From NCBI GenBank assembly GCA_963675755.2, contig CAXXMD010000002.1, forward strand, positions 1,952,001 through 2,016,000: a stretch of 64,000 bases of DNA, written 5' to 3'. The notes under the pieces were generated by a model. That model was not told the origin of the DNA. It searched no databases and worked only from the letters and a program-made list of their open reading frames with translations. The stretch comes from a bacterium (lineage in GTDB: Bacteria; Zhuqueibacterota; Zhuqueibacteria; Residuimicrobiales; Krinioviventaceae). The position numbers and the translations under genes are program-made. This document shows, one piece after another, positions 5,620-22,422 of the stretch. Position 1 is the stretch's first letter, and the number at the start of each line of letters is the position of its first letter.

Positions 5620-5696
5620 AGTGTTACCCCGGGTAACTTGCCCGGGATTTTCCCATTGACACTTTATCCCGGGTGCGAGCTCCAAGCTATCAACTT

Positions 5697-5795
5697 GCTA
5701 AAAGCTGACAGCTAACAGCTTTTAGCATATACCTCCATTCAGCTGCCTCACGTTTCATCTACCTACTGAAAACTGACCACTGAATACTGACAACT
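5697..5795. repeat. Degenerate heptamer tandem repeats
   Basis: gctaaaa-gctgaca-gctaaca-gct and actgaaa-actgacc-actgaat-actgaca-act. Confidence 0.6.
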
Positions 5796-5910
5796 TTATA
5801 TCGCAAACATTTTTGAATTTTTAAAAACTTTTATTTATTCATATTTATATTTATATTCTAATCTCGATTTATATACCATCAATCCGCATATATTCAATGC
5901 AGGAGTACAT

Positions 5911-7119
5911 TTGAAAAAATTGCTTTTAGCATCATTAATTTTATCATTCTGCATGAACTGCAGCAAGGCAGACAATACCCCGTCCCCAAAAACGGTCAAG
6001 GTTACGGTTGCTTGTTATTATTTCCCCAACTATCATCCTACTGATGCCCGTAACCAAAAACTCAAGGGCGACGGATGGTCTGAATGGGAGCTTGTAAAAG
6101 CAGCCAAATCCCGTTTCCCCGGACATTTACAGCCCAATGTTCCCATGTGGGGATACACGGATGAATCTGATCCTGTGCAAATGGCGAAAAAGATCAATGC
6201 TGCTACAACGCATGGTATTGATGCATTCATCTTTGACTGGTACTGGTTCAATGACGGATCATTTTTAGAATCAGGATTAGACAAGGGCTTTTTACAGGCG
6301 TCAAATAATGATCAGTTAAAATTTGCGCTCATGTGGGCCAATCATGATTGGCTGGATATCCATCCGTACACACGGGGAGAAAAAGCCAAAATCCTCTATC
6401 CCGGCAAGATAAAAAAAGAGACATTCGAGATCATATGCGACCATGTTATCGAATCCTATTTCAAGCACCCCTCCTACTGGAAAATCGATGGTAAACCCTA
6501 TTTCTCCATCTATGAACTCAACAAATTGATGGAAAGCTTTGGCAGCATTGAGGCCACACGTTCGGCATTGGACGAATTCAGGGCCAAAGCCATAAAAGCT
6601 GGCCTGCCCGGAATTCATCTCAATGCTGTAGTCTGGGGACGCTCTATCCTGCCCGGTGAGTCAAAACCTGCAGATGCCGCGGATGTTGTAGAACAGCTCG
6701 GTTTTGACAGCGTCACTTCCTATGTATGGATACACCATGTCCAGTTGCCGGGAATGCAGACAGATTACCCTTACGTACAGGAAGAGTATTTTAAATACTG
6801 GACCAAAGCAGATGCCATGTTTAATGTGCCCTATTTCCCCAATGTAACCATGGGCTGGGATTCGAGTCCCAGGGCAAACCAGGAACAACCATATGGCAAT
6901 TTCGGATATCCGTTTATGCACACCATATCGGGCAATACGCCCCAACGTTTTGAGCAGGCCTTGCTTGCCACAAAAAACCGTGTATTGCAGCAACAAGATG
7001 GACCCAAAATCATCACAATAAATTGCTGGAACGAATGGACCGAAGGCAGCTATCTTGAACCGGATACCCGCAACGGTATGGCATATCTTGAAGCAGTAAA
7101 AAATGTATATAAAAACTAG
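5911..7119 (+). CDS. GH99-like / WbsX-family glycoside hydrolase, probable lipoprotein
   Basis: CYYFPNYH, WSEWELVK, FDWYW, ALMWANHDW, GWDSSPR and INCWNEWTEGSYLEPD motifs; TTG start after AGGAG. Confidence 0.8.
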   Translation: MKKLLLASLILSFCMNCSKADNTPSPKTVKVTVACYYFPNYHPTDARNQKLKGDGWSEWELVKAAKSRFPGHLQPNVPMWGYTDESDPVQMAKKINAATTHGIDAFIFDWYWFNDGSFLESGLDKGFLQASNNDQLKFALMWANHDWLDIHPYTRGEKAKILYPGKIKKETFEIICDHVIESYFKHPSYWKIDGKPYFSIYELNKLMESFGSIEATRSALDEFRAKAIKAGLPGIHLNAVVWGRSILPGESKPADAADVVEQLGFDSVTSYVWIHHVQLPGMQTDYPYVQEEYFKYWTKADAMFNVPYFPNVTMGWDSSPRANQEQPYGNFGYPFMHTISGNTPQRFEQALLATKNRVLQQQDGPKIITINCWNEWTEGSYLEPDTRNGMAYLEAVKNVYKN

Positions 7120-7141: not shown

Positions 7142-10090
7142 ATGAAGAACAAGAAACAAACGCAACAGACGGAATTATCTATTCAAACTCTCACAGTAAT
7201 AACAATGGCGTTCATCCTGCTATTAAGCGCCGTAATCTGTTTTGGCTCGGATACGTCCGACAGGGATTACACGGCACTGGTCGATCCCTTTATCGGCAAC
7301 CTGGATTACGGCAACACTTTTTCAGGTCCCGCAACCCCGTACGGGATGATCCAGCTTACTCCCCATCTAAAATTTACCGACGAAGAAGGTTCGGGTATCC
7401 TTTACGGATTTCAGCATACCACCAACAGCGGCAGTGCCGGCGGCGGTAATACGGTCCGCGGTGATATCCTTTTCATGCCCTTTGCAATAAAAAACGCAGA
7501 GATTCCGGCGGATATGTCTTTTCAGTCCAAATTTTCCCACAAAAATGAAACCGCATCCCCGGGATATTTCAAAACCCTGCTGGAGGATTACAACATTACC
7601 GCTGAACTGACCGCAGCATGCCGGACCGGATTTCATAAATATAGCTTTCCCGAATCAGATAACGCCGGTATTGTGCTCAAGCTCGCCAGGGGATCAGTAA
7701 CCATATCGAGTGATGAGATGTCCGGTTATGAACAATCCCCTTCCAACGGTAACCGTGTGTACTTTTATGCAAAACTCTTGAATCCTGCTGACAGCTATGA
7801 GATTATTCATGGTGATAAAATCATCAAAGACATAGACACCCTGGAAGGAAGCGATATAAAAGCGATTTTCAAATTTAAATCCAATACTGACAAACCCATT
7901 ATGTTCAAAGTGGGGATTTCTTTTGTGAGCAAAGAGGGCGCAAAAAACAACCTTGAACAAGAAATACCGGATTGGGATTTCAACAAGATCAGGAACAACA
8001 CCGTTTCGGAATGGAACCGGGAGCTTGGCAAAATCGAGGTTAGCGGCGGTACAGAGACCGAACAGACCATTTTCTATACCGCTCTATATCATTCGCTGAT
8101 TCACCCCAGCATTTATATGGATGTGGACGGTAAATATCATAGCGCGAACGGAAATAACTATACTGCCGAAAAAGGTTTTGAAAATTATACCACTTTTTCC
8201 TTGTGGGACACATTCAGGGCGCTGCATCCGCTTTATACAATCATTAATCAAAAGAGAACATCCCAATTTATCAGAGCCTTTATGGAGCGTTATGATCACC
8301 GGGGCCGTATGCTGATCATGGATTTCCGCGGTGTAGAAGGTCAACAACCCCCAATGATCGGGTATCATTCGCTTTCTGTTCTGGCAGATGCATATGTTAA
8401 AGACATCCGCGATTATGATGTGGCCAAAGCCTATAAAGCCATGGTACATCTGGCAAAAAATTCCGGCAGACAGGGTATGGAGCTTTATCTAAATTACGGT
8501 TACATTCCTTCAGACCTGGTGGGTCAATCGGTCTCCAGAACGTTGGAATATTGTTATGATGATTGGTGTGTCACACGTCTGGCAAAAGATTTTAACAATG
8601 CGGATTATCAGTATTTCAGCCGTCGCGGTCAGTTTTTTAAAAACGTTTTCTCGCAAGAGGTTAATTTTATGCGGGGACGTAAAAGCAATTTCGAGTTTGT
8701 ACCCAATTTTGATCCCATGGAAACCATTAACCACTATACCGAAGCCAACGCATATCAGTACAGCACATATGTACCGCAGGATGTGGAAGGTCTGATCAAT
8801 TTGATGGGTGGCGACAAGGTATTTGAAGCCTGGTTGGACGCCTGTTTTACCACCCAAACCGATTTTTCCAAAATCAATGTTGCCGATGTTACCGGTCTCA
8901 TTGGCCAGTACGCGCACGGTAATGAACCCAGTCATCATATCTCTTATTTGTACAACTATGTGGGTACTCCCTGGAAAACCCAGGAAATGACCCGCAAGAT
9001 CATGGCCACTCTGTATAAAGCCACACCTGATGGAATTGACGGCAACGAAGATTGCGGACAGATGTCCGCCTGGTACGTAATGAGCGCTATGGGGCTCTAT
9101 TCCGTCACACCCGGACAAACATATTATACCATTGGAAGTCCGGCTTTTAACAATATCAAGATCCATTTGGAAAATGGCAAAACCTTTGAAATCGTTGCAA
9201 ACAACAACAGGCCGGAGAATGTATATATCCAATCCGCGCAGCTGAACGGTAATAGCTATTCAAAAACCTTTCTGGAACATGAGGATATTATGAACGGCGG
9301 TACAATTGTTTTTGAAATGTCGAATGTTCCCAACAAAACCCGCGGAACAGCCAAAGCAGACCGTCCCTACGCGCCAGAGCATTCATTTGTTATAGCAAAA
9401 GCGCCCGAGATATCATTCCCCAACATCCTGTTCCTGGACCATACCACCATTACCATGGCGCCTGCAGAAGCGGGTGCAGAAATCCGCTATACACTGGACG
9501 GATCAGAACCGAACAAGATGTCCATGCTTTATACCCAACCCATTACCATCGGGCAGGAAACCCTTTTCAAAACAAAAAGCTATGTGGATGGGAAACTTGC
9601 AAGCGATACCAAAACCGTACATTTTAAAACCATTGAAATGCTGGACGCGGTTACAGTAACCGATGAATTGCAACCCGGTGTCAGTTATTTATACAAAGAA
9701 GGAAACATAGCAGACTGCCGCGACCTGCCCAACCACAAGACTCTGAAAACCGGTGTACTGGAATATTTCCATGTAAACGAGATTCCTGACTCTCGCCAAT
9801 TCGGATACAATCTTGAAGGGTATTTACTCGTTCCTGAAACAGGTGTATACAGTTTTGGACTGGAAGCCAACGACGGTGCGGTATTGTACCTGAATGACAA
9901 AATCATCATTGACAATGACGGCGGCCACCGTGCGCAGCGATTGGACACCAAAATTGGACTCAAAAAAGGCTGGCACCCCATTCGGGTAGATTATTTTCAA
10001 CAAGGTCTGGCAAAAAGCCTGGATGTCTATTGGACAGGCCCCGGCATCGAGTACCAGGCACTCGCTCCGGAAGTGCTGTTTCATAAATAG
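7142..10090 (+). CDS. GH92 alpha-1,2-mannosidase with Fn3-associated and PA14 domains
   Basis: VDPFIG, SLWDTFRALHPL, SRTLEYCYDD, TEANAYQY, GQYAHGNEPSHH and GNEDCGQMSAWY; YTLDGSEP; ANDGAVLYL..IDNDGGH. Start uncertain (7103/7142/7208). Confidence 0.9.
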   Translation: MKNKKQTQQTELSIQTLTVITMAFILLLSAVICFGSDTSDRDYTALVDPFIGNLDYGNTFSGPATPYGMIQLTPHLKFTDEEGSGILYGFQHTTNSGSAGGGNTVRGDILFMPFAIKNAEIPADMSFQSKFSHKNETASPGYFKTLLEDYNITAELTAACRTGFHKYSFPESDNAGIVLKLARGSVTISSDEMSGYEQSPSNGNRVYFYAKLLNPADSYEIIHGDKIIKDIDTLEGSDIKAIFKFKSNTDKPIMFKVGISFVSKEGAKNNLEQEIPDWDFNKIRNNTVSEWNRELGKIEVSGGTETEQTIFYTALYHSLIHPSIYMDVDGKYHSANGNNYTAEKGFENYTTFSLWDTFRALHPLYTIINQKRTSQFIRAFMERYDHRGRMLIMDFRGVEGQQPPMIGYHSLSVLADAYVKDIRDYDVAKAYKAMVHLAKNSGRQGMELYLNYGYIPSDLVGQSVSRTLEYCYDDWCVTRLAKDFNNADYQYFSRRGQFFKNVFSQEVNFMRGRKSNFEFVPNFDPMETINHYTEANAYQYSTYVPQDVEGLINLMGGDKVFEAWLDACFTTQTDFSKINVADVTGLIGQYAHGNEPSHHISYLYNYVGTPWKTQEMTRKIMATLYKATPDGIDGNEDCGQMSAWYVMSAMGLYSVTPGQTYYTIGSPAFNNIKIHLENGKTFEIVANNNRPENVYIQSAQLNGNSYSKTFLEHEDIMNGGTIVFEMSNVPNKTRGTAKADRPYAPEHSFVIAKAPEISFPNILFLDHTTITMAPAEAGAEIRYTLDGSEPNKMSMLYTQPITIGQETLFKTKSYVDGKLASDTKTVHFKTIEMLDAVTVTDELQPGVSYLYKEGNIADCRDLPNHKTLKTGVLEYFHVNEIPDSRQFGYNLEGYLLVPETGVYSFGLEANDGAVLYLNDKIIIDNDGGHRAQRLDTKIGLKKGWHPIRVDYFQQGLAKSLDVYWTGPGIEYQALAPEVLFHK

Positions 10091-10185
10091 GGAATTATCG
10101 GATCGGTTCCTGTGCTTCGACAAGCTCAGCAACCATTTCCGCCGCAGGTGGAGTATCGAAGGATAAGGTCAGGAATATAAACAAC

Positions 10186-10249
10186 TTGATCGCCGGGTAC
10201 ATTGGTGCCCGGCGGTATTATAATGCAGGACTTGTCCTGCTTTTTTTTT
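10186..10249 (+). repeat. Tail-less copy of the 90-bp double-hairpin unit, followed by a T-run (may terminate the GH92 transcript)
   Basis: ttgatcgccgggtacattggtgcccggcgg..tgcaggacttgtcctgc-T9, matching 18630-18690. Confidence 0.75.
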
Positions 10250-10256
10250 GTAGAAA

Positions 10257-10410
10257 TCTCGTCTGAATTGGGATGAAAGGATTAAAAGATGAATAGGATT
10301 GAATCCCCCCCCATTCCAATCCTGTCATCCTTTAATCCTACGAATCTAAATTCAGACAATAAAAAAGCGCCGATTACTGCATGATTAGCAGTGCCGGCGC
10401 TTATAGTAAA
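10257..10410. repeat. Repeat A copy 1: long imperfect hairpin plus minus-strand terminator
   Basis: gtctgaatt...aattcagac, then aaaaaagcgccg...cggcgcttatag. Aligns end to end with 16064-16216. Confidence 0.85.
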
Positions 10411-10477
10411 CACTTGCTATATAATGGCACGAGTATTATGATTGTAATGCATAGATGTAGAAAACGGATAAAAAAAT

Positions 10478-10499
10478 CGTGCCACAGGCACGGGCTACC
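10478..10499 (-). repeat. GTAG-type REP-like palindrome
   Basis: Minus strand reads GGTAGCCCGTGCCTGTGGCACG. Confidence 0.5.
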
Positions 10500-10552
10500 A
10501 ACTGGGAATCCTGTTCCAAGGACATGGACATCATTCTATTCATTGTAAGGAA

Positions 10553-10969
10553 TCAAGCACAATCATAGCTCCAATGAATTCTAAATAGTAAATCAATTGC
10601 CGCATTATACCTATTCGATTCATGAAATGGTACAAACAGCAGAATTGGTATTATACACTCAAGAATAATATTGTAACTTGGATTGAGCATATTGAAAATT
10701 AAAATGGATAAAACGATATGATAAAAAATCAACTTAACTTGTTTAGGACATTTGTTATCACTTTCTTTTGGATAAATTTTAAAAATGGCCATCCCAGCGG
10801 TTCGCCCTTTTAATAAAAATAATTCTCCAATTTGAGTTATAATAAAAAAGAATAGAAATGAAAAAACCAAATTACCACCTGCATAATTAACTGCAATAGC
10901 AGGCAAAAAAGAACTAAAAAAATCAAAAAGTATAGACAATACTCTTTTAATAATCATAAGTAACTCCAT
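10553..10969 (-). CDS. RDD-like membrane protein, putative immunity protein of the adjacent RHS toxin
   Basis: KRVLSILFD start, GRTAGM motif, hydrophobic segments, very AT-rich, directly downstream of the RHS C-terminus. Confidence 0.6.
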   Translation of the reverse strand: MELLMIIKRVLSILFDFFSSFLPAIAVNYAGGNLVFSFLFFFIITQIGELFLLKGRTAGMAIFKIYPKESDNKCPKQVKLIFYHIVLSILIFNMLNPSYNIILECIIPILLFVPFHESNRYNAAIDLLFRIHWSYDCA

Positions 10970-10991
10970 TGTTTGCCGAATAATTTATATC

Positions 10992-11932
10992 TTAGTTTTC
11001 TTCTTCGTCATCTTCTTCCAATTGATCGCTTTGTTCATTTTTTTCTATTATTTCTTGAATTTGCTTTCCCCTTTCAATAATATTGTTTCGAAGATCCCCT
11101 GTAATTTGTGCAGTATTAATAAGAGCTTCAATTAATTTTAAAGCTCTACCATCTACAGCCAACTTACCAATATTTATACCACCTGTTAAAATATCTTCCG
11201 TAAGTCCAACGATTTCCAGCTTAGTACCCTCAATGCCTGCTCCTTGAGCTACTTCATAGGAGAGATTTCCGAATGCATTTGCATCAATACCATCAGGAAC
11301 ACTAGCTGCCAATCTAAAATCTTCAATTCCAGTGGCTGCTGAAAAACCTCCAGCGACTTTCAATGCTTCACCGCCTACTACCAAGCCAACACCAAGAGCT
11401 GAAAATCCACCTACAGAAGCGATTGTTACTCCAACTCCTTTAATTTGTAGAACCCATCCAGCAGCATAAGTTAAACCACCTCCTACTGTCTTTATACCGG
11501 CTTCTAACATAGCAGATTTATCTTTTTCGCCACTTGGATCAATTCGATTTACCGGATTATTTGAACAATAGTGAAAAGGTGTTAATCCAGGGTATTTCTC
11601 TGCCAACGGATCAACGCTGATAAACCGCCCGACGACCGGGTCGTGGTATCGTGCTCCAAAGCTGCAGGTCCGACCCCTGGCGGATAGTAAAGATCAAGGC
11701 CGTGCTCGTCGTCCAACTCTTTGCCGGTGAATTTCTGGATCGTTTCTATAGAACTGTTAACCGAACTGCGCGATACCGAGCCGAAAGGATAATAATCGTA
11801 GCGCTCAACTACGTTCTTGTCCGCGTCTACAACCACCCGGGTATTGCCCAGGTGGTCGTGAATATGAAAATAATATTGCCCTGCTGACGCAACACTGTAT
11901 TGCATCATAACCAAAATAACGCAAAAAAACAA
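10992..11932 (-). pseudogene. Orphan RHS core plus C-terminal toxin, frameshifted by a 23-nt insertion
   Basis: HDHLGNTRVV..YDYYPFG..FTGKELD..DLYY in one frame. Removing 11661-11683 restores FGARYHDPVVGRFISVDPLAEKYP..NNPVNRIDPSG. Confidence 0.85.
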
Positions 11933-11955
11933 ATGTTTTAATCAAACGTTTTTTT

Positions 11956-12035
11956 ATCCGTGAAGATCCGTGTGAATCCGTGGCCGAATTGACAGATAGG
12001 AAATTAGCCACTGATCTCCACAGATCAGCACGGAT
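11956..12035. repeat. Inverted pair of 10-mer tandem repeats
   Basis: atccgtgaag-atccgtgtga-atccgtggc ... gccactgat-ctccacagat-cagcacggat. Confidence 0.7.
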
Positions 12036-12184
12036 GAGAATTGCAATATTTTGTATTTAGGTGCCTTGGTAAGCAAGGAGACGATTGTGACGGAGACAAT
12101 CCCCCCCATGATTAGATTTACAACGTCAATTCAATCCTGTAATCCTACAAATCATAATTCAGACAGATATGAACATTTTGATTA

Positions 12185-12280
12185 ACCGGCCCTTCGATAC
12201 GCTCGTCCGCAAAAGCGGACTCACACTCAGGGACCTAAATTATTCTAATCAAGTTAATCCGGTTAATCCTTTAATCAGGG
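12185..12280. repeat. Repeat B copy 1 (CCTTCGATAC..CTCAGGGAC palindrome plus 9-mer tract)
   Basis: 12213-12280 aligns with 18413-18480. The palindromic half recurs at about 18572 and 18839. Confidence 0.8.
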
Positions 12281-12298
12281 TGAGCTTTACCCGAAAAA

Positions 12299-13180
12299 TT
12301 AGACACAAAGAAAAGCTCGTTTTTGATTAAATTGGTTTTCAAAGTTAATAGGTGACAAATAATCCAAACTTGAATGAAGCCGTTTATAATTATAAAAGAT
12401 GTCAATATAATCAAAGATTTTTTGTTCAGCATCCTGAAAGGATTCAAATCGTTCAAAAGAATAAAACTCAGATTTGAATGTACCAAAAAAAGATTCCATA
12501 ACGGCATTATCATAACAGTCACCTTTGCGACTCATACTTTGAACAATACCCTGTTCTTTCAAAAATGCTTTTACTTCAATACTTGCATACTGGATGCCGC
12601 GATCGGAATGAAAGATCAACCCTTTTTCGGGTTTTCGTTTGGCAACAGCATCTTTTAGTGACTTTAACACAAAGTCCAAAGATAGATCACGACTTAAGTG
12701 CCAGCTAATGATCTGTCTGGAAAACAAATCCATAATGGCTACAAGATACATCCACTGCTTCTGGACTTTGATATATGTAATGTCTGACAGCCAAATCTGA
12801 TCCGGCCGTTCAGCATGAAAGTTTTGGTTTAGCAAATTTGCGGCAACACGAAACCGGTGTTTTGAATATGTCGTAGCCTTATATTTTTTCTTAACTTTAG
12901 AACGTATATCATTCTCACGCATCAAGCGAGCAACACGGTTTTTGCTGCAATTGTTATTCATTGCTTTAAGCTCGGCTGTAATTCGCGGACTGCCGTAAAT
13001 ATATCGACTTTGCTCATGAACCTGTTTAATGAGTTTGAGTAATTTTTCATTTTCAAGTTCGCGCTGACTGGATCCGCGTCTTCGCCAGGCATAATATCCG
13101 CTCCGGGATACTTTAAAAGCTTCACACATCTTCTGCAGCCGAAATCTGGAGCGGTGCAGAAAAATGAATTCACATTTCAT
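12299..13180 (-). CDS. IS3 transposase OrfB (DDE/rve integrase)
   Basis: YGSPRI, WLSDITYI, HSDRGIQY, DNAVMESFF, YNYKRLHSSL. Confidence 0.95.
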   Translation of the reverse strand: MKCEFIFLHRSRFRLQKMCEAFKVSRSGYYAWRRRGSSQRELENEKLLKLIKQVHEQSRYIYGSPRITAELKAMNNNCSKNRVARLMRENDIRSKVKKKYKATTYSKHRFRVAANLLNQNFHAERPDQIWLSDITYIKVQKQWMYLVAIMDLFSRQIISWHLSRDLSLDFVLKSLKDAVAKRKPEKGLIFHSDRGIQYASIEVKAFLKEQGIVQSMSRKGDCYDNAVMESFFGTFKSEFYSFERFESFQDAEQKIFDYIDIFYNYKRLHSSLDYLSPINFENQFNQKRAFLCV

Positions 13181-13479
13181 TTCGGCAGTTTGGAGAAGAT
13201 GCTGATTGCTTTTTTTAAGATTTCGTTCTCCTCTTCGAGGTCAACGAGTTTCTTTTTGAGATCACGTAGTTCCTGATCAGCAGGCTTCAAATGTCCTTTG
13301 CCTGGAAAAGCATTTTCTTCATCTTGAAGGTACTCTCTTTTCCAATTGCGAAGTGTTGAAGGATTTATTCCAAGTTCTCGGGCAACTGCTTTTAATGGCC
13401 TTTGCCCATCGATGATCAATTTAACTGTTTTGACCTTAAATTCCGTACTAAATGAGCGTCTTGGTTTTCGTTCATTCAT
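13177..13479 (-). CDS. IS3 transposase OrfA (HTH)
   Basis: FSTEFK..VARELGI..TLRNW..EENEILKKA. A7 slippery run at 13210-13216 leads into the open -1 (orfB) frame. Confidence 0.93.
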   Translation of the reverse strand: MNERKPRRSFSTEFKVKTVKLIIDGQRPLKAVARELGINPSTLRNWKREYLQDEENAFPGKGHLKPADQELRDLKKKLVDLEEENEILKKAISIFSKLPK

Positions 13480-13546
13480 AACACACCTCCATTGTTGTAA
13501 TATACGAACTTTTCGGTGTGTCTACAATATCAGGTAAAGGTTAGGG

Positions 13547-14290
13547 TTATATTACCCAGGACAAAATAAAACTAACATTCCCAGCCTTGTATTGTTCCAA
13601 CCCGAATGTATAGAAAAAATTCATTTGAAAATAACGTTGATAATGCCCCAATCCCAGTTGATATCGTCTGGACTGCTTGTATTGAATATGGGACAATATG
13701 ATATAATCATGTTCCAGAAATCTGTAAACCGTATTGATCGATTCTGAATATTGTTTACGGTAATATTGCATAGTCAGCTGATTTTGCAGCATGGTCATAG
13801 ATATAGCCTGTCCATCAGGATAAATGGACGCGGACATTCTTGTCCCCAAAACCTGAGCAGGATATCTCATATGCAATCCCGTCAAGTTGGGATATATATT
13901 ATGAATTTTGTATTTCTGCAATAACACACGTGCACGGTTAGCCCCTTGCTGCGCAACCAGCCCGGCCATAACCCAGCCCATAATATCTCGTTTGGTGGTT
14001 TCAGGATTTCGGTTCATTCGCCATGCAAACAACTCTAATGGCTCGTAGAAATTTACAGCATTTCCTTTACTAAAGCGGGTCAGTTTTATGAGATTATACT
14101 TTAATCGACGTTCATCCATATTGACACGAAATCCATTAAACAAAAAATAATTCAACGAATTCGTTCTCTGATAGGAACCAAGGGAATCCAGGATGACGTA
14201 ACGATCATACGATACCGGTTGAGCAGTCAAAATAGAATTAGTGAATGGGAACAGTCTGAGAATCATCCAAATTACAACTAGCTTTTTCAT
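13547..14290 (-). CDS. Hypothetical exported protein, possibly outer-membrane beta-barrel-like
   Basis: MKKLVVIW signal-like start at 14290 (ORF track starts 14350); alternating hydrophobic C-terminus VSFILSWVI. Confidence 0.55.
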   Translation of the reverse strand: MKKLVVIWMILRLFPFTNSILTAQPVSYDRYVILDSLGSYQRTNSLNYFLFNGFRVNMDERRLKYNLIKLTRFSKGNAVNFYEPLELFAWRMNRNPETTKRDIMGWVMAGLVAQQGANRARVLLQKYKIHNIYPNLTGLHMRYPAQVLGTRMSASIYPDGQAISMTMLQNQLTMQYYRKQYSESINTVYRFLEHDYIILSHIQYKQSRRYQLGLGHYQRYFQMNFFYTFGLEQYKAGNVSFILSWVI

Positions 14291-14522
14291 AGTTTTTCCT
14301 GGATGAATACATGTATTTTTAAACCCGGGTAATGAGAAAAACATCAACAACTAACAATTAAACGCTGAATCCAGGATTCGGTTCCTGGCCTGACCAACAA
14401 ACTGGATTTACACTGATACACTCGCCATTCAATTGGGTAAACAAGGATTTAAATATATTATTAAAACATTATTGCAATACATGTAAATTCTTAATATCTT
14501 TAAAAAAATCAGGGAAAAAACC

Positions 14523-16022
14523 ATGAAAACCTCAATATCAAGACGTAGATTTTTATCTGCCAGCGCCGCTACTACTCTGTTTCCATATTTTATATATTGT
14601 AAATCAAAACCAGGCAAACCCAATATCATTTTTTTGATGGATGATCAGCACAGGTGGGACGCCCTGGGTTTTGTTGATAACAAGACGATTACCCCGAATC
14701 TTGACAAACTGGCAAATAATGGGATTTTCTTTGACCAGGCTGTCTGTCAGGCACCCATGTGCACACCCAGCAGAAACTCGATGATGTTCGGGCTTTATCC
14801 GAACCAGATTGGCGTTTTACGAAATGGGACCGGTATTCCGGACGATAAACTGCCTGCAAAAACACTCCCCCAACTGCTCAAAGAAGCTGGTTACCAAACC
14901 GCAGGGTTCGGCAAGACACATTGGGGACTGGACTGTTCCACACGCGGATTTGAAACCCGCGACATCGCCCAATGCTTTGAATACGATGCAATCATGATGA
15001 AAGACGATGCTCCGGAAGACAAAAAACTTTACGATGCCGAAAGTATTACCATGGGCGGAGGTGAAGAAAATAATCATGGCTATCTCGGGTTTACCAGTTC
15101 GCTGACTGAGGAACAACATCGTGACGGCTGGGTAACCAAGAAATGTCTGGAATTTATTGAAAATGGTACCGATCCAAATCGGCCCTTGTTCCTTTACCTG
15201 TCATTTCTCAAACCGCATGCAGGGCACAATGTGCCTGCAGGGTATGAGGAAAAGTATGACCCCGATCAAGTCCAATATGCTCAACAACCGCCCTGGAAGC
15301 AGGACAATTCTCCTCACGCGCTGGGTATTAACAGACGCGATATGTATATCAATTATTGGAGCAAAGCAACAGATGAGCAATGGCGATTGATGACCATGCG
15401 CTATCGGGCCAATTGCACCTGGATCGATGACATGTTTGGCAGAGCGGTAAAAGCGCTTGAACAAAAAGGATTATTGGAAAACGCCTTGATTGTTTATTGT
15501 TCGGACCATGGAGAAATGCTGGGTGAAAGATTTTACAGATTTAACAAATATTGCCTCTATGAATCCAGTGTACGGGTACCCGTAATTTTATCAGGATCTG
15601 TAGTGCCTGCGGAATCACATGGCACGAAAGACCATAGACCGGCACAACTTGTAGATCTGTATCCCACTCTGCTTAAAGCAGCAAATTTACAGGTCCCAAA
15701 CAGTGCTGTGGGCCTGGATTTGTTTAGCGATAAAAAAAGGACTGCATCATTCAGCGCATTGCATGAGCGGGAAACAGAAGCTGCTTTTATGTGGCGTACT
15801 CCCGCATACAAATTAATACTTGTCATGAATCGCAAGGCGGATGCCAGTCAATATACAAAAGCGGACATCAAGGACGGTGAATTTTATAATCTTGAAAATG
15901 ATCCCCGGGAATGGAACAATCTATATAATGATCCACTTGAATCGTCTAAAATTCAAAAAATGACCAAAGAACTGTTATCACATCTCGGTGGATTATCACC
16001 TGTGATACCAAATCCCGTCTAG
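14523..16022 (+). CDS. Formylglycine-dependent sulfatase, Tat-exported
   Basis: SRRRFL Tat motif; PNIIFLMDDQHR; CTPSR (CxPxR); GKTH; SDHGEMLG. Confidence 0.92.
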   Translation: MKTSISRRRFLSASAATTLFPYFIYCKSKPGKPNIIFLMDDQHRWDALGFVDNKTITPNLDKLANNGIFFDQAVCQAPMCTPSRNSMMFGLYPNQIGVLRNGTGIPDDKLPAKTLPQLLKEAGYQTAGFGKTHWGLDCSTRGFETRDIAQCFEYDAIMMKDDAPEDKKLYDAESITMGGGEENNHGYLGFTSSLTEEQHRDGWVTKKCLEFIENGTDPNRPLFLYLSFLKPHAGHNVPAGYEEKYDPDQVQYAQQPPWKQDNSPHALGINRRDMYINYWSKATDEQWRLMTMRYRANCTWIDDMFGRAVKALEQKGLLENALIVYCSDHGEMLGERFYRFNKYCLYESSVRVPVILSGSVVPAESHGTKDHRPAQLVDLYPTLLKAANLQVPNSAVGLDLFSDKKRTASFSALHERETEAAFMWRTPAYKLILVMNRKADASQYTKADIKDGEFYNLENDPREWNNLYNDPLESSKIQKMTKELLSHLGGLSPVIPNPV

Positions 16023-16063
16023 TCTAAACTGCGCCAGGGGATATCAGGATGATCGTTATGGGT

Positions 16064-16216
16064 TCTTGTCTGAATTAGGATGAAAGGATTAAAAGATGCA
16101 TAGGATTTAATCCCCCCCATTCCAATGCTGTTATCCATTAATCCTACAAATCATAATTCAGACAAAAAAAGCGCCGGACAATGCATGGTTAGCAGTGAGA
16201 CGGCGCTTATAGGAAA
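16064..16216. repeat. Repeat A copy 2
   Basis: Aligns with 10257-10410, including the terminator hairpin aaaaaagcgccg..cggcgctt. Confidence 0.85.
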
Positions 16217-16251
16217 ATTGGTCAGAGGTCCATGCTACGAACAAAAGATTA

Positions 16252-17280
16252 TCACTCTAAATCAAACTCTTTAATATCCCAATTAAAACAATTATAAAAG
16301 CTACTTCGACTTTGATATAACTTTATAAATTGACTTTTTTGATGGGTGAAAATATTATATTTCATAAATTTAATATTAGTAAATATCTCAAAACGTCTGG
16401 TAAAATCGACAAAATATAAACAATTATTGTAAATAGTTATACTACTGCCTTTATCAAATAACACAAAACTTTGTTTATTTTGTAAATCAAACAGTTCGAT
16501 AAATCTTTTCCCTCTATCCTCAGAATAACGATTAATAATCAATGAATCATTATTAATCCATTCAAAACTTGAAACATTATCAAGTATGGGTACAAATTTA
16601 AATTGTTGTAAATCCAAAAAAGTTAAATATCTTTTCCCATTTCCTCCTATATATCTTGCTCCAATAAAATTATTATCTGGACTTATTCGCACTTCACCAT
16701 AAACAGATGAAAAATCACCCAACTCATAAGGATTTAAAATTTTCCTGGTAGAAATTTGATCGCCATTAATTATTAATAATACTTTTTCAAGATCATTTTT
16801 ATTATTTAATAGTTGTAAACATAAATAAATTATTTTATCCTTTTTCAATATCCATTCAAAATTATTAATACTTTGATAGCTATCTTTATAAATTAATTTT
16901 AAATCATAATTGTGTTTATTATCATATTCAACTACACTTATTGAATCACCAGAAAAGCATGCCCAAACACTTTGATTATAAACAAATTCATTATGGTTAA
17001 AATCAGGTAATTGCGTCACAGTTTTTTTTAATATATCTACAATATAATGATTACGATCTCCCCCTTCTCCTATAATTGCAGTATTTGAAAAAAACTTGAA
17101 ATCTAAAAACCTTCTTGTTAATGGTGTAACAAAATCCATAACCAAAGAATCTTTTTTCATATCACGAATTACAAACCGGTATTGATTATCTTTTGCGGGT
17201 TCATAATATACCAACAATGTTGTTTCTGCATATATAACGGATGCATAAACAAGGATGAAAAGAAATAATTTAAATTTCAC
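16252..17280 (-). CDS. Exported, probably beta-propeller protein; putative immunity partner of the upstream RHS toxin
   Basis: GTG start after GAGG; signal peptide; ISPDNNFI TolB-like turn; extremely AT-rich; 14 bp after the RHS stop. Confidence 0.6.
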   Translation of the reverse strand: MKFKLFLFILVYASVIYAETTLLVYYEPAKDNQYRFVIRDMKKDSLVMDFVTPLTRRFLDFKFFSNTAIIGEGGDRNHYIVDILKKTVTQLPDFNHNEFVYNQSVWACFSGDSISVVEYDNKHNYDLKLIYKDSYQSINNFEWILKKDKIIYLCLQLLNNKNDLEKVLLIINGDQISTRKILNPYELGDFSSVYGEVRISPDNNFIGARYIGGNGKRYLTFLDLQQFKFVPILDNVSSFEWINNDSLIINRYSEDRGKRFIELFDLQNKQSFVLFDKGSSITIYNNCLYFVDFTRRFEIFTNIKFMKYNIFTHQKSQFIKLYQSRSSFYNCFNWDIKEFDLE

Positions 17281-17294
17281 TATTTCACCTCACT

Positions 17295-18377
17295 TTAGTA
17301 TTTCTGCTTTGATAAAAATGTTTGTTTTGCTATCCAAGTCAAACCATCAGCAGGTCCATACCCCCCACTGAAAACGGCTGTTGAAAGCCGAACGGGCAAT
17401 GTATTACCTAACAACTGATTAGGTAAAAATGTCTTACCTATGGCCTTACGTATTGTTTGTGCAGCTTGTTGATGACATACATTCCTGGAGATATATTCCC
17501 ACCATCCTCGTTTTGAAGGTACAAAACCTCCCTTTGGAGCAGCCATAGCTGCATGGATTCCCCCATGGCGGGCTATACCGCTAAGTTTTTTATCATAATA
17601 TATATTATAAGAACCACTATGTAATGGTTCTTGGTCAGCAAGTGTTATTGCATCACGACCTATTTGTCCATCAGCCCAAGCCCAACCATTCGTTTCATCT
17701 TCTATAAATTTATCTATTTCGTCTTCTGACATAGTAGTCTTTGAAACTTGAAGTTTTGGATCAGTTGGCATAATTTTGTTAAACACAGCTCCCTCTAAAA
17801 ATGTGGGTCCTAAAAAGTTTAACGTTTTATCCAAATCTCTTCCAATATTGTTAGCGACAAAATTACTCACGCCAGTTTCATTATATGCAGTATTCCACAC
17901 TGCCTTTCCTGCAACCTCTGCTCCAAGTTTTTGCATGGCAGCTTCTACACCACCAGCAGATACTAATCCCATTGCTCCAAATGCAGCCCCAATGAAAAAA
18001 TCTGTTTCAAAATTTGATTGCCCATTTGAAAAAATCTTATTCATAACAGCATTTGAAAAACCACCAAATAAAATTGGCGCAAGAAAAGCAAACTCCCCAT
18101 CAGGATCCACTATACTTAACGGGTTATTGCCGCAATATACATATGGGCTAAATCCCTGTCCGGCGGGGTCGGGCGTAAACCAACGACCAATGCCAGGATT
18201 GTAGTATCTTGCTCCAAAATAATAAAGCCCGATATCCGAATCAAGCTCTTTTTGCGAGAACTGGTAATTGTTATCATTGTTACCCGAAGCCACCAGGGTT
18301 TCTCCAAAGGGGGTGTAATCGCGCGTCATATCAGTATTGCTCAGCCGTCGCGTACTACCAACCTGATCTTGATACAC
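17295..18377 (-). CDS. Orphan RHS core plus C-terminal toxin, 5'-truncated at repeat B
   Basis: DQVGSTR, DYTPFGE, QKELDSDIGLYYFGARYYNPGIGRWFTPDP, YCGNNPLSIVDPDG cleavage motif. No convincing start codon. Confidence 0.85.
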   Translation of the reverse strand: MYQDQVGSTRRLSNTDMTRDYTPFGETLVASGNNDNNYQFSQKELDSDIGLYYFGARYYNPGIGRWFTPDPAGQGFSPYVYCGNNPLSIVDPDGEFAFLAPILFGGFSNAVMNKIFSNGQSNFETDFFIGAAFGAMGLVSAGGVEAAMQKLGAEVAGKAVWNTAYNETGVSNFVANNIGRDLDKTLNFLGPTFLEGAVFNKIMPTDPKLQVSKTTMSEDEIDKFIEDETNGWAWADGQIGRDAITLADQEPLHSGSYNIYYDKKLSGIARHGGIHAAMAAPKGGFVPSKRGWWEYISRNVCHQQAAQTIRKAIGKTFLPNQLLGNTLPVRLSTAVFSGGYGPADGLTWIAKQTFLSKQKY

Positions 18378-18412
18378 AAAACGGTAGCCTTCGGTTAGAT
18401 AAAGCTCGGGAT

Positions 18413-18482
18413 AAGCGGATTCACACTCAGGGACCTAAATTTTCCAAATCAAGTTAATCAGGTTCATCCTTTAATCAGGGTT
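18413..18482. repeat. Repeat B copy 2
   Basis: aagcggattcacactcagggacctaaat...aagttaatc.ggtt.atcctttaatcaggg, as at 12213-12280. Confidence 0.8.
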
Positions 18483-18485
18483 GTC

Positions 18486-19160
18486 TCCTCATGCCCAGGC
18501 TCTGTCTGGGTGCGAATTGCTTGCTATAGGGTTCCAGGGCCGTGTCTTGGTACCAGGATGGGACATTTCTCACCAGCCCTTTGATACACTCGTCCAAAAA
18601 TGCGGACTCGCACTCAGGGACCTGGATTTTTGATCGCCGGGTACATTTGTGCCCGGCGGTATTATTGTGCAGGACTTGAGTCCTGCATAAATGACATCGT
18701 AGTTATCTTAAACTCAGTTTGCATGTTCCCAAACTCCCCAGGAGTACAGTCCGTTTATGGACTGTGTGCGGATCGCAGATCCGCTTAATGACATAGAATC
18801 TATTAGAATCTCAGTTTTAACCAGGCGGAACATTTCTCACCAGCCCTTTAATACACTCGCCCGCAAAAGCGGACTCGCACTCAGGGACGTGGATTTTTGA
18901 TCGCCGGGTACATTTGTGCCCGGCGGAATTATAATGCAGGACTTGAGTCCTGCATAAATGACATCGTAGTTATCTTAAACTCAGTTATGGGTTCCAAGGC
19001 CGAGCCTTGGTAACAGGGTGGAAAGAATTTCCTTGATCGCCGGGTACATTTGTGCCCGGCGGTATTATTGAGCAGGACTTGAGTCCTGCATAAATGACAT
19101 CGTAGTTATTTTAAGCTCAGTTATAGGGTTCCAAGGTCGAGCCTTGGAACCAGGGTGGTA
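18486..19160. repeat. Compound palindromic repeat array
   Basis: Three near-identical 90-bp units (18630-18719, 18897-18986, 19033-19122), one structural variant (18741-18816), and gggttccaagg..ccttggaaccagg-type hairpins at 18529, 18989 and 19126. Confidence 0.9.
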
Positions 19161-19200
19161 TCAGGGTGAAAATCTCGCGACTGACACCTTACCAGATGAA

Positions 19201-19905
19201 TCAAACAAACTGTACCTGCTTGACCTTTTTAAAACAGATATCCTGCAATTTCAGTTTTTCCACAGCTTTTTTAAAATTTTCTGTTACAATGATTATTTCA
19301 GGTAATTCCTTGATACGAAAGATCTCTTCATCCAGTTGTTCGGGTACTATACTGATCTTGAGGTGATCAGGCTTGGTGATTGAATTTTTACCGCATCGTT
19401 TGCAGGTTTTAACATTGCTATCCATTAATGCAGCTTTGGCATGGATCTGAAATTCATAATATTTGAAATCACTTTGATCGCTCATTCGAATTTGTGTTGG
19501 CGCAATAGCAGGCAAATTTATATTTTGCTCCTTTAATTGCTGGTAGGCTTTGAAACTGATGAGCGGAGTCCAAGGATTTGGCCATGCAAAATCATAACCA
19601 TTCCAATGAGCAATTCCTCTCAATGGACCAAATCTAGTTCCCGGCAGAACAAACAAATCGTTAAAGATTTTATCCGTAGCCGGCTTCATTTCATGATGCA
19701 CAGCCCATTGATAAGGTTTTGGTCTTGAATAATAGTCTTTATACTGCATGCAGGATTCATTAATATTTACTTTAGGATATTGTAAGCCAATAGCCAGCCA
19801 GCTACTGTTACATACATTGCAGATTATACCCGGTACACAGTATTGATGTATTGCACGTATCAAATAATTGGTCGCATTGTCATATGTCATTTCAAAATAG
19901 TTCAT
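19201..19905 (-). CDS. Double-CXXCG motif protein (similar to myxobacterial SitI6-type immunity proteins)
   Basis: PGIICNVCNSSW..GLQYP, LPGTRFGPLRG, CKRCG, IIVTENF. Likely ATG at 19905 (ORF track starts 19920). Confidence 0.7.
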   Translation of the reverse strand: MNYFEMTYDNATNYLIRAIHQYCVPGIICNVCNSSWLAIGLQYPKVNINESCMQYKDYYSRPKPYQWAVHHEMKPATDKIFNDLFVLPGTRFGPLRGIAHWNGYDFAWPNPWTPLISFKAYQQLKEQNINLPAIAPTQIRMSDQSDFKYYEFQIHAKAALMDSNVKTCKRCGKNSITKPDHLKISIVPEQLDEEIFRIKELPEIIIVTENFKKAVEKLKLQDICFKKVKQVQFV

Positions 19906-19935
19906 ATTCTGGTATCCCAATAGTAAATACTTTTT

Positions 19936-20004
19936 TCCTCATGCCCAGACTCTACCTGGATACGAATAGCTTGTTTGGATTCCAGGGCCTAGCCTTGAAC
20001 CAGG
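19936..20004. repeat. Direct repeat of 18486-18557
   Basis: tcctcatgcccag.ctct..ctgg.t.cgaat.gcttg...ttccagggcc...cttg..accagg. Confidence 0.75.
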
Positions 20005-20092
20005 TTGAATTCTTACAGCTACAAGCTTTACTTGCCTCACCTGATTACTGATTACTACAGCTTTTCACGTTAATCGTCTTTCGTCTGCTATC

Positions 20093-22396
20093 TCACTTGA
20101 GCAGCAGCATCTTTTTTGTTTCGATACGTTCACCATTCACAATAAAAGTATAAAAATAAAGTCCGCTTGCAAACTCATTGGCTTGCCAGGAATACTCGTA
20201 CCAACCGGCACTCAAAATTTCATCGGCAATTACGGTTACCTGTTGACCTGAAGCGTTAAAAATTACTACCGATGCCCGGCCCTGATCCGGCAAATAAAAC
20301 CGGATATTTGTTTCAGGATTAAAGGGATTGGGATAATTTTGCTCCAAAATATACTGCGAGGGAATTTTATCTTCATTTTTAATATCTGTAGATGTACCCT
20401 GATTTGCAGCAGCAAAGGTCGGTTCCATTTGTACAAAAGCCCCGGTCCCGTCAGGAAAACGTCCGGTAGTGCGATCATCTGTCTGTTCAGAAAAAGTCAC
20501 CTGATCAACAATACTCGTATCGGAATTGGACAGATATATGGCCTCACCAGATGCGGATAGCTTGAAATTCGCATGTAATCCGGTTTGATCATCATCTTTA
20601 TCCGCCCAGATAATCAAATAATTATGAGCGGCAATAACAGTATCCGGAAAGGACCATTGCGTCAAATCATTGTTATCATCAGTGAGGAAATAACCGCCTA
20701 GTTGAATTGTTTCATCAGTATTATTATAGAGCTCTATCCAGTCGTCAAATTCTCCATTAGCATCTGTTACTGTGGATTCATTACTGGCCATAAACTCGTT
20801 TATTACAACATCACCTTGTACATTAATTTCAAACAATTCATATTGCGCACGTGCAGGTAAAAAACTGGCAGCGTTCTCATTTTCAGCATATATATAATAT
20901 TGAAATCCTGTTGCTCCTGCATTGACCGCAATACCATATATACCGTCCCCTGCATCTCCATCATCATGATTACCATCATCATACATCCGGGCTTGAACAA
21001 ATGCATCAGTAGCTCCATAGCGATAAACCATTTGGACCACATCAGCATTATCCACCCCGGCCGTAATTGTAACAGCAGAATGTGCTGACACCTGCGAAGG
21101 ATTAACAGATATATCATGAACAACGGGTGGATCTGCCAGGAATTCAGGTTGAGCATTCAGGAAATCGAGTCGTGCTTGCATCAATTCGGTAATTCCAATG
21201 ATTGGCTGGTTACCGGGCCCCGGAGGGCCACCACCCCCTATACTGTTATCAATATTGTTTTTAAAATCTGTATAGGTGTAAAACTTGTTGGGATCATTCA
21301 TTACTTCCGTATCAATAATACTTTGCAATTCCTGCGCACGGGTTTTGTACCAACCATTACTGAAAACATCATCCATGATTGTTTTCATGTGTGCAATATA
21401 TATTTTTTGATATGCCGGCTCTGAAAGTATTTTAGAAATAATGGGATAATTGTCATTTTCAACATTCAAAAACGGGTCCAGTTGTTGTATTCCGGTAATA
21501 CTGGAGACATTACTACCAAAAAGATTGGTAAATACTCCAAAGTTTTCATTCAGGTCCCAAATAACAGGATTAAATAACCCTGCATCATCTTTATATAAAT
21601 AATAATTATGTCCAAAATTAACTGGCGAGTCCAGATTTACCATTAGAATGTCAAACGCCAACATCCACAAATGTCTGTCTATATTTAAATAATTTTCAAT
21701 ATCATTTGTATTATTGTTCAGCACATCCAGAAAATCAATCAAATCTTTCCATCCATAATCAGACTCGATTTCAAAAAAAGGCGTATAACTGGATGAATCA
21801 GCACCCCAATAGCCCCATACAACAGTTTCCTGCTGCATATTGTTATTTGTCAATTCTCCTTTAAAATATGCATTATCATCACTGTAAAAATGGGTCCTCA
21901 TAAAATGTTTGTCAACATCCTGAACATTGGTATATAAACCCAGGTAGGTCCCATTAATCCAAACCTTGCAATAATTTGCCTGACTTGCCGGCATATATTT
22001 ACGGGCAATCTCATAACTCAATGTTTCCCGCACAAAACTGGGATCTTTGTAAACGTTTGCCAGCTTGAGAGTTCCATAACCCTGGTGTTCCTGATCATCT
22101 ATCAAATAATCCAGTTTTATGTTCAATGGATTTTTGATCAGGCTGGAATTATAACTGCTGTTTCCTTTATAACGTACTCCCACACTGTCATATTGTATAC
22201 CATTTACAATTGCTGTACCCAGCAACCGATCCTCATTGCCTTCTGCATAGAGATTGTCAAGCAGTTCATCCCAGTTTGATTCCGCAAAAGTCAACTCGAT
22301 GGTATTGATGGTATCTATATCGTAAAAATCCTGACAAAAGATTTTGGTCGCAACAACAAGCAGGAAAATCATTCCCCAAAGTGGTTTTGTTTTCAT
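20093..22396 (-). CDS. CotH-family kinase with lamin-tail domain and T9SS-type CTD
   Basis: VGVRYKGNSS, NLD..HNYYLY, IWDLNENFG; VVINEFMASN..DWIELYN lamin tail; QNYPNPFNP. ATG at 22396 followed by a signal peptide. Confidence 0.88.
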   Translation of the reverse strand: MKTKPLWGMIFLLVVATKIFCQDFYDIDTINTIELTFAESNWDELLDNLYAEGNEDRLLGTAIVNGIQYDSVGVRYKGNSSYNSSLIKNPLNIKLDYLIDDQEHQGYGTLKLANVYKDPSFVRETLSYEIARKYMPASQANYCKVWINGTYLGLYTNVQDVDKHFMRTHFYSDDNAYFKGELTNNNMQQETVVWGYWGADSSSYTPFFEIESDYGWKDLIDFLDVLNNNTNDIENYLNIDRHLWMLAFDILMVNLDSPVNFGHNYYLYKDDAGLFNPVIWDLNENFGVFTNLFGSNVSSITGIQQLDPFLNVENDNYPIISKILSEPAYQKIYIAHMKTIMDDVFSNGWYKTRAQELQSIIDTEVMNDPNKFYTYTDFKNNIDNSIGGGGPPGPGNQPIIGITELMQARLDFLNAQPEFLADPPVVHDISVNPSQVSAHSAVTITAGVDNADVVQMVYRYGATDAFVQARMYDDGNHDDGDAGDGIYGIAVNAGATGFQYYIYAENENAASFLPARAQYELFEINVQGDVVINEFMASNESTVTDANGEFDDWIELYNNTDETIQLGGYFLTDDNNDLTQWSFPDTVIAAHNYLIIWADKDDDQTGLHANFKLSASGEAIYLSNSDTSIVDQVTFSEQTDDRTTGRFPDGTGAFVQMEPTFAAANQGTSTDIKNEDKIPSQYILEQNYPNPFNPETNIRFYLPDQGRASVVIFNASGQQVTVIADEILSAGWYEYSWQANEFASGLYFYTFIVNGERIETKKMLLLK

Positions 22397-22422
22397 ATTA
22401 AAATCCTGATTCGTGATTAAGA

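Follow-up and report, generated by a model that had tools for sequence, protein, structure and literature searches.

The 64,000-nt stretch of bacterial DNA analysed here (the window; bare coordinates are positions within it) contains two modules, each made of an RHS core end with a C-terminal toxin domain and a small presumed immunity gene, that lie between similar left-hand (A) and right-hand (B) repeats. We found that the flanks of these modules are not cassette ends. They are composites of a module-specific 3′ unit and of generic repeats resident at the sites, namely the full A palindrome, the two parts of B (B-left and B-right) and a hairpin repeat, T1. We see an even chance that the modules were placed by homology-driven recombination through a shared arm of the palindrome and are now mainly immunity genes or a silent toxin stock. 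The arrangement is a variant of the orphan rhs-CT/immunity modules, and what the shared flanks show is the movement of such pairs and not a new dedicated cassette machine. The initial annotation of the window had proposed a dedicated, repeat-delimited cassette system. This is not supported; what survives of the idea is that the modules vary between strains and that the right arm of A, with the adjoining terminator, is a conserved module boundary.

Two unrelated modules lie between similar repeats

The genome that holds the window (G000, the host genome) is a 6.48-Mb, three-contig assembly that is 98% complete; C2 and C3 below are two of its contigs. The comparator (G001, the sister genome) is a single 6.5-Mb contig from the same genus and was the sole sister genome compared. 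Repeats were paired within positions 8000–21000 of the window, and copy numbers were obtained by BLASTN against the whole host genome.

Both modules lie on the minus strand and read, in that direction, repeat B, RHS core end and C-terminal domain, small open reading frame (ORF), terminator and repeat A. The core ends matched TIGR03696 (RHS-associated core; cut-off 32.5 bits) with 50.3 bits in module 1 and 87.6 bits in module 2, and both show DPxGE motifs. The small ORF is co-oriented with the toxin gene and directly downstream of it in each case, and is the presumed immunity gene. The toxins and partners had been described as unrelated in the initial annotation, and this was borne out by BLASTP, with best E values of 2.1 between the toxin domains and 0.11 between the partner proteins. 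The two RHS core ends share 39% of their residues and have no detectable DNA similarity.

The same annotation had reported that like repeats bracket the two modules in the same orientation, and this too held. On the left, A1 pairs with A2 in three segments (10257–10311 with 16064–16118, 93%; 10306–10364 with 16112–16170, 88%; 10361–10393 with 16165–16197, 85%). The best non-self match of A1 in the whole host genome is A2 (86.9% over 137 nt, E 5e-40). On the right, B1 (12206–12281) pairs with B2 (18406–18481) at 88%, and the best non-self match of B1 genome-wide is B2 (91.3% over 69 nt, E 1e-21); both results are far beyond chance. Overall, A1 and A2 are about 87% identical over about 140 nt and B1 and B2 88–91% identical over 69–76 nt.

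Repeat A joins a palindrome to a module terminator

Repeat A consists of an imperfect palindrome, some 100 nt long, and an adjoining terminator, which reads on the minus strand as a hairpin followed by a U run. The palindrome ends in GTCTGAATT...AATTCAGAC and is TAATCC-rich, with left and right arms around a C-run loop. The A1 palindrome was placed at 10257–10358 by repeat pairing, folding and alignment of copies, and the A2 palindrome at 16064–16164 by alignment with the second site of the sister genome and with array spacers, both described below; neither was assigned a strand. The terminators follow at 10359–10407 (module 1; placed by folding) and 16165–16212 (module 2), both on the minus strand. 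In agreement with the initial annotation the terminator is shared, and it folds as a hairpin with a U run behind it. The module 1 terminator matches that of its counterpart in a sister-genome array at 44 of 46 positions.

The 161-nt stretch 10250–10410 folds at −65.2 kcal/mol (z −8.0 against shuffled sequences), and the pairing is kept across nine aligned palindrome copies. No compensatory change was found at any of the 29 pairs in these nine copies, so there is no sign of selection on the structure of A beyond its sequence. No target duplication was seen by eye at the A copies. A GTAG-type hairpin nearby (10478–10498) was considered as a member of a repetitive extragenic palindrome (REP) family and set aside, as it has at most three copies at up to three mismatches and is not a REP at that stringency.

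The right arm and terminator mark the 3′ ends of RHS modules

A query spanning the right arm and terminator of module 1 (10306–10410) gave 20 matches in the host genome and 19 in the sister genome. In the host genome, five of the 20 extend into the terminator, and whole-genome BLASTN added another such copy at C3:637376, which brings the number to six. RHS-module loci account for five of them, of which two are in the window and three belong to a gene array at C3:637–642 kb. In the sister genome, nine of the 19 matches reach the terminator, and all nine are in RHS loci (L032, L034 or L036). The combined unit is thus found at an RHS locus in 14 of 15 copies when the two genomes are pooled. The other host copy (C2:1358899; positions 4853–6194 of locus L002, equivalent to C2:1358853–1360194) has two neighbouring ORFs, a hydrophobic one of 142 aa and one of 182 aa. 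The latter has a borderline match to Y1_Tnp (IS200-like), and L002 could be a non-RHS module or a gene of the RAYT type.

The C3 array contains three or four co-directional modules between a DeoR regulator gene and a phosphoglucomutase (PGM) gene. Each module ends in a terminator, a right arm and a leader that matches window positions 11897–12171 at 82–83%. The sister-genome arrays at L032 and L034 are longer and have the same build, and in all three arrays the genes are co-directional with repetitive intergenic sequence. The PGM-side flank of the array is orthologous between the two genomes (91.4% identity over 3.7 kb, counted from the arm).

Alignment of 12 spacers gave a common core consisting of an arm of about 45 nt, ending in AATTCAGACA, and then the terminator. 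On the other side of this core lies the leader hairpin in the arrays and the left arm of the palindrome in the window; the array spacers therefore hold only half a palindrome. Judged by these alignments, the arm and terminator together form the conserved 3′ end, or boundary, of the RHS-type modules of this genus and also serve as the array spacer.

The remaining flank sequences belong to generic mosaic repeats

Repeat B likewise has two parts, a nested hairpin of the type CTTCGATA...ACTCAG (B-left) and a TAATCC-rich sequence that resembles an arm of A (B-right). In the feature map, drawn from the repeat search, B1 occupies 12186–12280 and B2 18386–18481, again with no strand assigned; B2 abuts the truncated 5′ end of the module 2 RHS fragment. 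T1 (10186–10250, plus strand), both a hairpin repeat and the terminator of a GH92 gene, has nine copies in the host genome.

When the sub-elements were queried separately they gave 36 hit clusters in the host genome, in which they are mutually independent and vary in order. T1–A units stand in tandem at C2:1926871–1927912, and the order is A, T1, B at C2:1169822–1170232. At C2:1924540–1924743, between ordinary genes, an A palindrome is followed after about 60 bp by a B-left-type hairpin and B-right, an A-then-B composite with nothing inserted. Directly beyond B2 in the window there is a mosaic of short repeats found by the repeat search (18481–19160, no strand assigned) comprising repeats D9 and D4 and three T1/B-left units; the latter (18560–19122) are tandem units of about 160 nt built of T1 and B-left pieces.

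Arm-only copies, of which there are 15 in the host genome and 10 in the sister genome, are dispersed and mostly lie beside housekeeping genes. Among 67 ORFs that flank repeat clusters at 21 other loci, just four belong to toxin/immunity-type Pfam families (Cys_rich_CPCC and NADase_transloc at L005, RES at L006 and WapI at L014). The other neighbours that could be named are ordinary, for example an ABC-F protein, GH28, tetrahydrofolate dehydrogenase, a class-II tRNA synthetase, PPK2 and fumarase. On this sequence evidence, the left arm of A, the arm-only copies and B belong to a generic class of mosaic intergenic repeats. The initial annotation had named high copy number, mutual independence and a lack of enrichment around toxin genes as grounds for abandoning the cassette idea. 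These properties apply to B and to the arms of the palindrome and do not apply to the arm-plus-terminator unit.

Both sites are empty in the sister genome

The sister genome is collinear with the window at 83–91% identity and lacks both modules; both sites are empty there. At site 1 the order is the GH92 gene, T1, about 70 unrelated bases, B-right and a gene for a 267-aa protein. Since B-right is present at this empty site, it is resident sequence there. At site 2 the sulfatase gene is followed by an A palindrome that leads directly, with no terminator, into the 3′ end of the next gene. The presence of the palindrome at this empty site likewise makes it resident sequence.

Site 2 of the host genome carries a specific block of 6.25 kb (16165–22415), which starts with the module 2 terminator. 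It contains module 2, B2, the short-repeat mosaic, a lone immunity gene and a CotH-family gene, and B2 is therefore internal to the block and not at its edge. Collinearity resumes where position 4102954 of the sister genome joins 22416 of the window. The sister gene beside the palindrome lines up with the window ORF at 22423–24261; with the CotH gene it has in common only the tail for the type IX secretion system (T9SS; 49% over 98 residues).

Since site 1 of the sister genome has B-right without A and site 2 has A without B, the two flanks have separate histories. This is one of several observations that bear on a local origin of the pair, in which one A–module–B unit was duplicated 6 kb away, the inner toxin/immunity pair was then swapped by classical displacement through homology in the RHS core and terminator, and the flanks are alike by descent. 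Such an origin would fit the reciprocal best matches of A1 with A2 (87%) and B1 with B2 (91%), which are in direct orientation and 5.8 and 6.2 kb apart. It sits badly with the divergence of the core ends through which the swap would have run, and with the differing states of the modules, of which the first has a leader and a signal-peptide remnant and the second is truncated. The donor of module 1, moreover, is array-like. We regard a local duplication as distinctly unlikely.

The position counts within A also bear on how the modules arrived. The left arm of A2 matches the site 2 palindrome of the sister genome at 36 of 38 positions and is orthologous to it. The distal right arm of A2 is identical to the array type at all 27 positions compared and agrees with the orthologous site at 24 of 27. 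In A1, the proximal right arm matches the site 2 palindrome at 19 of 20 positions and module 1 of the sister genome at 14 of 20. These counts, though small, are compatible with crossovers that fell within the arm or at its end.

Module 1 resembles an array module of the sister genome

Module 1 consists of imm1 (10553–10969, minus strand), a toxin gene (10992–11932, minus strand) and an array-type leader (11933–12165, minus strand). Its presumed immunity protein is a hydrophobic protein of 138 aa that is 96% identical to its sister-genome counterpart; its sole Pfam match is a weak one to RDD (E 0.055), and it does not convincingly resemble the small ORFs at L002 or L001. The toxin gene, delimited by TIGR03696 and alignments, has a signal-peptide remnant, two RHS repeats, the core end and a glycine-rich C-terminal domain. 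The leader, identified by BLASTN and spacer alignment, contains a hairpin, a C-run and a second copy of the right arm (12127–12165), which also ends in AATTCAGACA. Module 1 is thus bracketed by two direct copies of the arm, at 10313–10358 and 12127–12165. In Pfam scans of the toxin domains and partners at E values up to 1, toxin domain 1 matched no family, and an Atlas search gave only leads below 0.9.

The segments 10313–10818 and 10814–11674 are 96% identical to two pieces of the sister genome, against 83–91% for the surrounding DNA, which speaks for a recent exchange of module 1. Before an IS-linked rearrangement, where IS denotes an insertion sequence, these pieces formed the first, PGM-adjacent module of the sister-genome array. 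The first module of the host genome's own array differs from module 1. In the sister genome the imm1 copy is now split, with a 323-aa DDE transposase ORF at each of two breakpoints some 1.7 Mb from each other (L032 12365–13336 and L033 4753–5724; the L032 ORF was examined with Pfam), and the split resembles an IS-mediated inversion.

The module 1 toxin frame is shifted by a 23-nt insertion (11661–11683) that sits between LYY and FGARY codons. It has one copy in the host genome, or two at three mismatches, which rules out a multicopy element. Other GC-rich short insertions were also seen in RHS core ends at junctions of YY and FG codons. The 23-nt insertion occurs in window module 1 and in two sister-genome modules (L032/L034). 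A 32-nt insertion carrying TAG is present in four sister-genome modules and not in window module 2, and a 33-nt insertion lies between YDYY and PFG codons in two sister-genome modules. One module there has a sequence like the 23-nt insertion at the opposite end of the RHS-repeat segment, and in another the segment is gone and one copy is left.

These findings can be set against a coincidental origin of the arrangement. A would then be a transposable element of the miniature inverted-repeat type (MITE) or a REP-like element that had inserted independently beside terminators, B would be unrelated, and the modules would be decaying vertical remnants that were deleted in the sister genome. The terminal inverted ends, many dispersed copies and tandem T1–A arrays of A are as expected of such an element, the frameshift in toxin 1 is as expected of decay, and the host genome has four genes of the Y1_Tnp type, of which one adjoins an arm-plus-terminator copy. 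The lack of a visible target duplication at A copies speaks against independent insertion, as does the association of the arm-plus-terminator unit with RHS loci. Vertical descent does not readily account for a cross-species identity of module 1 (96%) that exceeds that of its surroundings, and it requires a precise deletion in the sister genome that spared the palindrome. We consider this origin unlikely, if a little less so than a local duplication.

Module 2 and the strain-specific block

Module 2 consists of imm2 (16252–17280, minus strand), which encodes a 342-aa presumed immunity partner with no Pfam family, and a 360-aa ORF with an intact frame (17295–18377, minus strand) that encodes the RHS core end recognized by TIGR03696 and C-terminal domain 2. 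The open frame extends back into B2 and stops there, which agrees with the statement in the initial annotation that the RHS frame meets repeat B. C-terminal domain 2 (17295–18095) is rare, with three other matches (E 6e-46 to 3e-4) among 1.84 billion representative proteins. It matched no Pfam family, and a word-index search returned the query alone.

The lone immunity-type gene of the block (19201–19920, minus strand) has no toxin gene in front of it and matches Gmx_para_CXXCG (E 1.5e-28), with weak matches to Imm43 and Imm11. Its homologue in the sister genome (67% DNA identity) follows an RHS-core-end toxin with DUF2380. The CotH-family gene (20093–22397, minus strand, start codon at 22397) encodes a CotH-LTD protein with a T9SS sorting tail and was not found at this site in the sister genome.

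Genes expected of a delivery system were not found in the host genome

RHS core ends number three in the host genome and 11 in the sister genome. A six-frame search of the host genome gave no match to PF05593 (RHS repeat) and none to DUF6443. The sister genome has two RHS shell genes, found with hmmscan and DUF6443. These comprise a 1453-aa ORF (RHS_repeat E 5.5e-11) together with open frames that are 1622 and 1721 aa long; the shell ORFs and the genes behind them fall within L035 164–6089 and L036 190–5707. A tblastn search of the host genome with the two shell ORFs found no homologue of either. No full-length rhs gene was thus found ahead of the modules or elsewhere in the host genome. PF05593 was found in at least three of 31 genomes (the host genome and 30 relatives), a count that is a lower bound because the sister-genome shells were missed. 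VipB/TssC had no match in either the host or the sister genome.

Separate short proteins lie behind the sister-genome shells, and each combines a signal-peptide-like start with two RHS repeats, a core end and a toxin domain. Window module 1 aligns at its start with the signal peptide of these proteins. With neither an RHS shell gene nor TssC, and with a frameshift in toxin 1, the host genome most likely retains the modules as immunity genes or as a silent toxin stock and not as working delivery.

The host genome has four tyrosine recombinase genes (PF00589; C2:549682, C2:2254394, C3:604557 and C3:3502359). None lies in the window or within 30 kb of the modules or the array, and the one nearest to the C3 array is about 33 kb away. 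These positions bear on a site-specific system of the integron or rAID type, in which the A palindrome would be attC-like and would be cut at the AATTCAGACA end by a recombinase encoded elsewhere, and cassettes would be captured by, or moved between, A sites. Several features recall such a system. Junctions fall exactly at the end of the arm in five places (A1 with the terminator, A2 with the terminator, leader 1 with the flank, the PGM side of the array and the empty site of the sister genome), the imperfect palindrome A, some 100 nt long, is located 3′ of the cassette, and arrays with repetitive spacers exist. Along with the remoteness of the recombinase genes, the half palindromes of the array spacers, the arm-only copies beside housekeeping genes in both genomes and the absence of compensatory pair changes all argue against it. 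We judge a system of this kind very unlikely, the least probable of the alternatives considered.

How the modules may have been placed

Under homology-driven placement, the arm of about 45 nt, perhaps together with T1 and B-right or other dispersed repeats, would act as portable homology for the ectopic placement of modules. For module 1, this would involve a prior transfer from a donor like the sister genome. A bolder reading is that the half palindrome could be a portable address, such that a horizontally acquired module would integrate at any of dozens of landing pads through RecA or through an enzyme that cuts at the AATTCAGACA end, and the lineage could stock immunity genes even after the loss of its own rhs delivery genes. 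We offer this reading tentatively and think it rather unlikely, if slightly less so than the coincidental origin.

A number of observations weigh against placement through the arm. Site 1 of the sister genome has no A palindrome. Module 2 has neither a leader nor a second copy of the arm, and B2 adjoins a truncated RHS fragment. There is no visible homology at the right junction of the 6.25-kb block. The support for a crossover in A2 hangs on three differing positions in 27. The genome-wide reciprocal best matches of A1 with A2 and of B1 with B2 hint at a closer link between the two loci than membership of a family, and leave room for local duplication or for gene conversion between nearby loci. 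As one sister genome was compared, insertion in the host genome is favoured over precise loss in the sister genome only by inference. The absence of an RHS shell gene from the host genome rests on a three-contig assembly that is 98% complete, and the six-frame PF05593 search is weak as a test of absence, having missed the diverged shell genes of the sister genome.

The modules in the window are ectopic and lie in a genome without an rhs shell; one is nearly identical to an array module of a sister species, and the half palindrome that each carries corresponds to a dispersed repeat native to the genome. Should the shared arm be what lets modules land, immunity genes would have a concrete, testable means of spreading and of persisting in the absence of a delivery system, and ordinary intergenic repeats would shape where accessory genes integrate. 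If the arm is not the landing device, the locus would be an ordinary repeat-rich variable region.

Relation to known systems

In most accounts, orphan toxin/immunity modules are silent spares behind an rhs gene; earlier work on those of Enterobacteria includes Jackson 2009 and Poole 2011. The enterobacterial orphan rhs-CT/immunity modules (Koskiniemi et al. 2014, PMC3967940) are the closest known kind. Like these, the window modules have a short core end, a variable toxin domain and a small immunity ORF, the modules form tandem arrays, and they differ between close relatives. Homologous recombination is the accepted mode of movement of the enterobacterial modules. Unlike them, the window modules lie away from any rhs gene in a genome without an RHS shell gene, each has a 3′ terminator and a half palindrome, module 1 also has a leader and a signal-peptide remnant, and they are dispersed at sites marked by resident palindromic repeats.

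The defining feature of the rAID-1 arrays of Bacteroidales is a 5′ XerD-like recombinase, and their intergenic repeats are integron-like (Ross et al., bioRxiv 10.1101/471110). The present arrays resemble them in having co-directional, low-GC immunity genes against contact-dependent toxins and repetitive intergenic DNA, and in the suggested role in acquired defence. They differ in that there is no XerD-like recombinase near the modules or array, the toxin domains are still attached, and the two modules of the window are separated by conserved genes.

Mosaic intergenic repeats include the bacterial interspersed mosaic elements (BIMEs) and REPs of Escherichia coli, the pneumococcal BOX elements and the Correia elements of Neisseria. 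The repeats described here are like these in being short hairpin units with a varying intergenic order that are often associated with terminators, occur in tens of copies and may be recombination substrates. They differ in belonging to other sequence families, in that one sub-unit, the arm with its terminator, is linked to a single class of genes, and in that no target duplication was seen. Integron gene cassettes carry attC sites. The present units recall them in looking promoterless, in having an imperfect palindrome of some 100 nt at the 3′ end and in occurring in arrays. Unlike integrons, the present system has no integron integrase and has half palindromes in its arrays, and no R′/R″ core sites were noted by eye. 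A full-text search of the literature returned no orphan RHS modules flanked by palindromic repeats among the best matches listed, which hints that the arrangement may not be in print.

Further surveys were made for relatives of the locus. A scan of metagenomes with the 267-aa protein found no relative, and a scan with the sulfatase gave 71 loci of at most 73% residue identity, none of which has the A or B repeats or an RHS core end. Contigs from three sequencing runs of one study, two of them from a single sample that may be the source, were compared with window positions 8500–21500 at 85% likeness. The 15 of 27 joints that were listed fit paralogous repeat copies (for example the A–T1 arrays and the C3 array) and have short sides of 20–38 letters, except for one diverged stretch of equal length inside an IS3 element. 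No empty-site or circular junction could be claimed from these contigs, which cannot reveal rare forms. An Rfam search of 9800–20200 gave nothing relevant, and a sigma-70 promoter scan was uninformative (38 sites, with 32.7 expected).

What lies between the modules

The initial annotation had placed a sulfatase gene and another ordinary gene between the modules and had seen no recombinase in the window. Both genes are there, as the 267-aa hypothetical gene (minus strand) and the sulfatase gene (plus strand) at 13547–16022, which has 88% identity with the sister genome. The spacer also contains an IS3-family insertion sequence (12281–13543, minus strand), so that a transposase, contrary to the annotation, adjoins B1. 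The element comprises orfA (13177–13479; HTH_Tnp_1, E 5e-20) and orfB (12299–13180; rve, E 2e-26), which overlap, and it has the terminal inverted repeats and 3-bp target duplication of the IS3 family (GGG at 12278–12280 and 13544–13546).

The undisrupted target of the element is present in the sister genome, and a 100% identical copy lies in the host genome at C2:2198570–2199833. Because of this intact target and identical second copy, the IS3 element is a simple and recent insertion beside B1, separate from the placement of the modules and probably later. The two copies are inverted relative to each other and about 234 kb apart, and could invert the intervening segment.

Elsewhere in the window, positions 2842–5620 (about 2.7 kb) match at least seven further places in the sister genome at 75–80%. 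Six of these lie in a run at 4076031–4095596, and the sequence looks like a tandem paralogue family.

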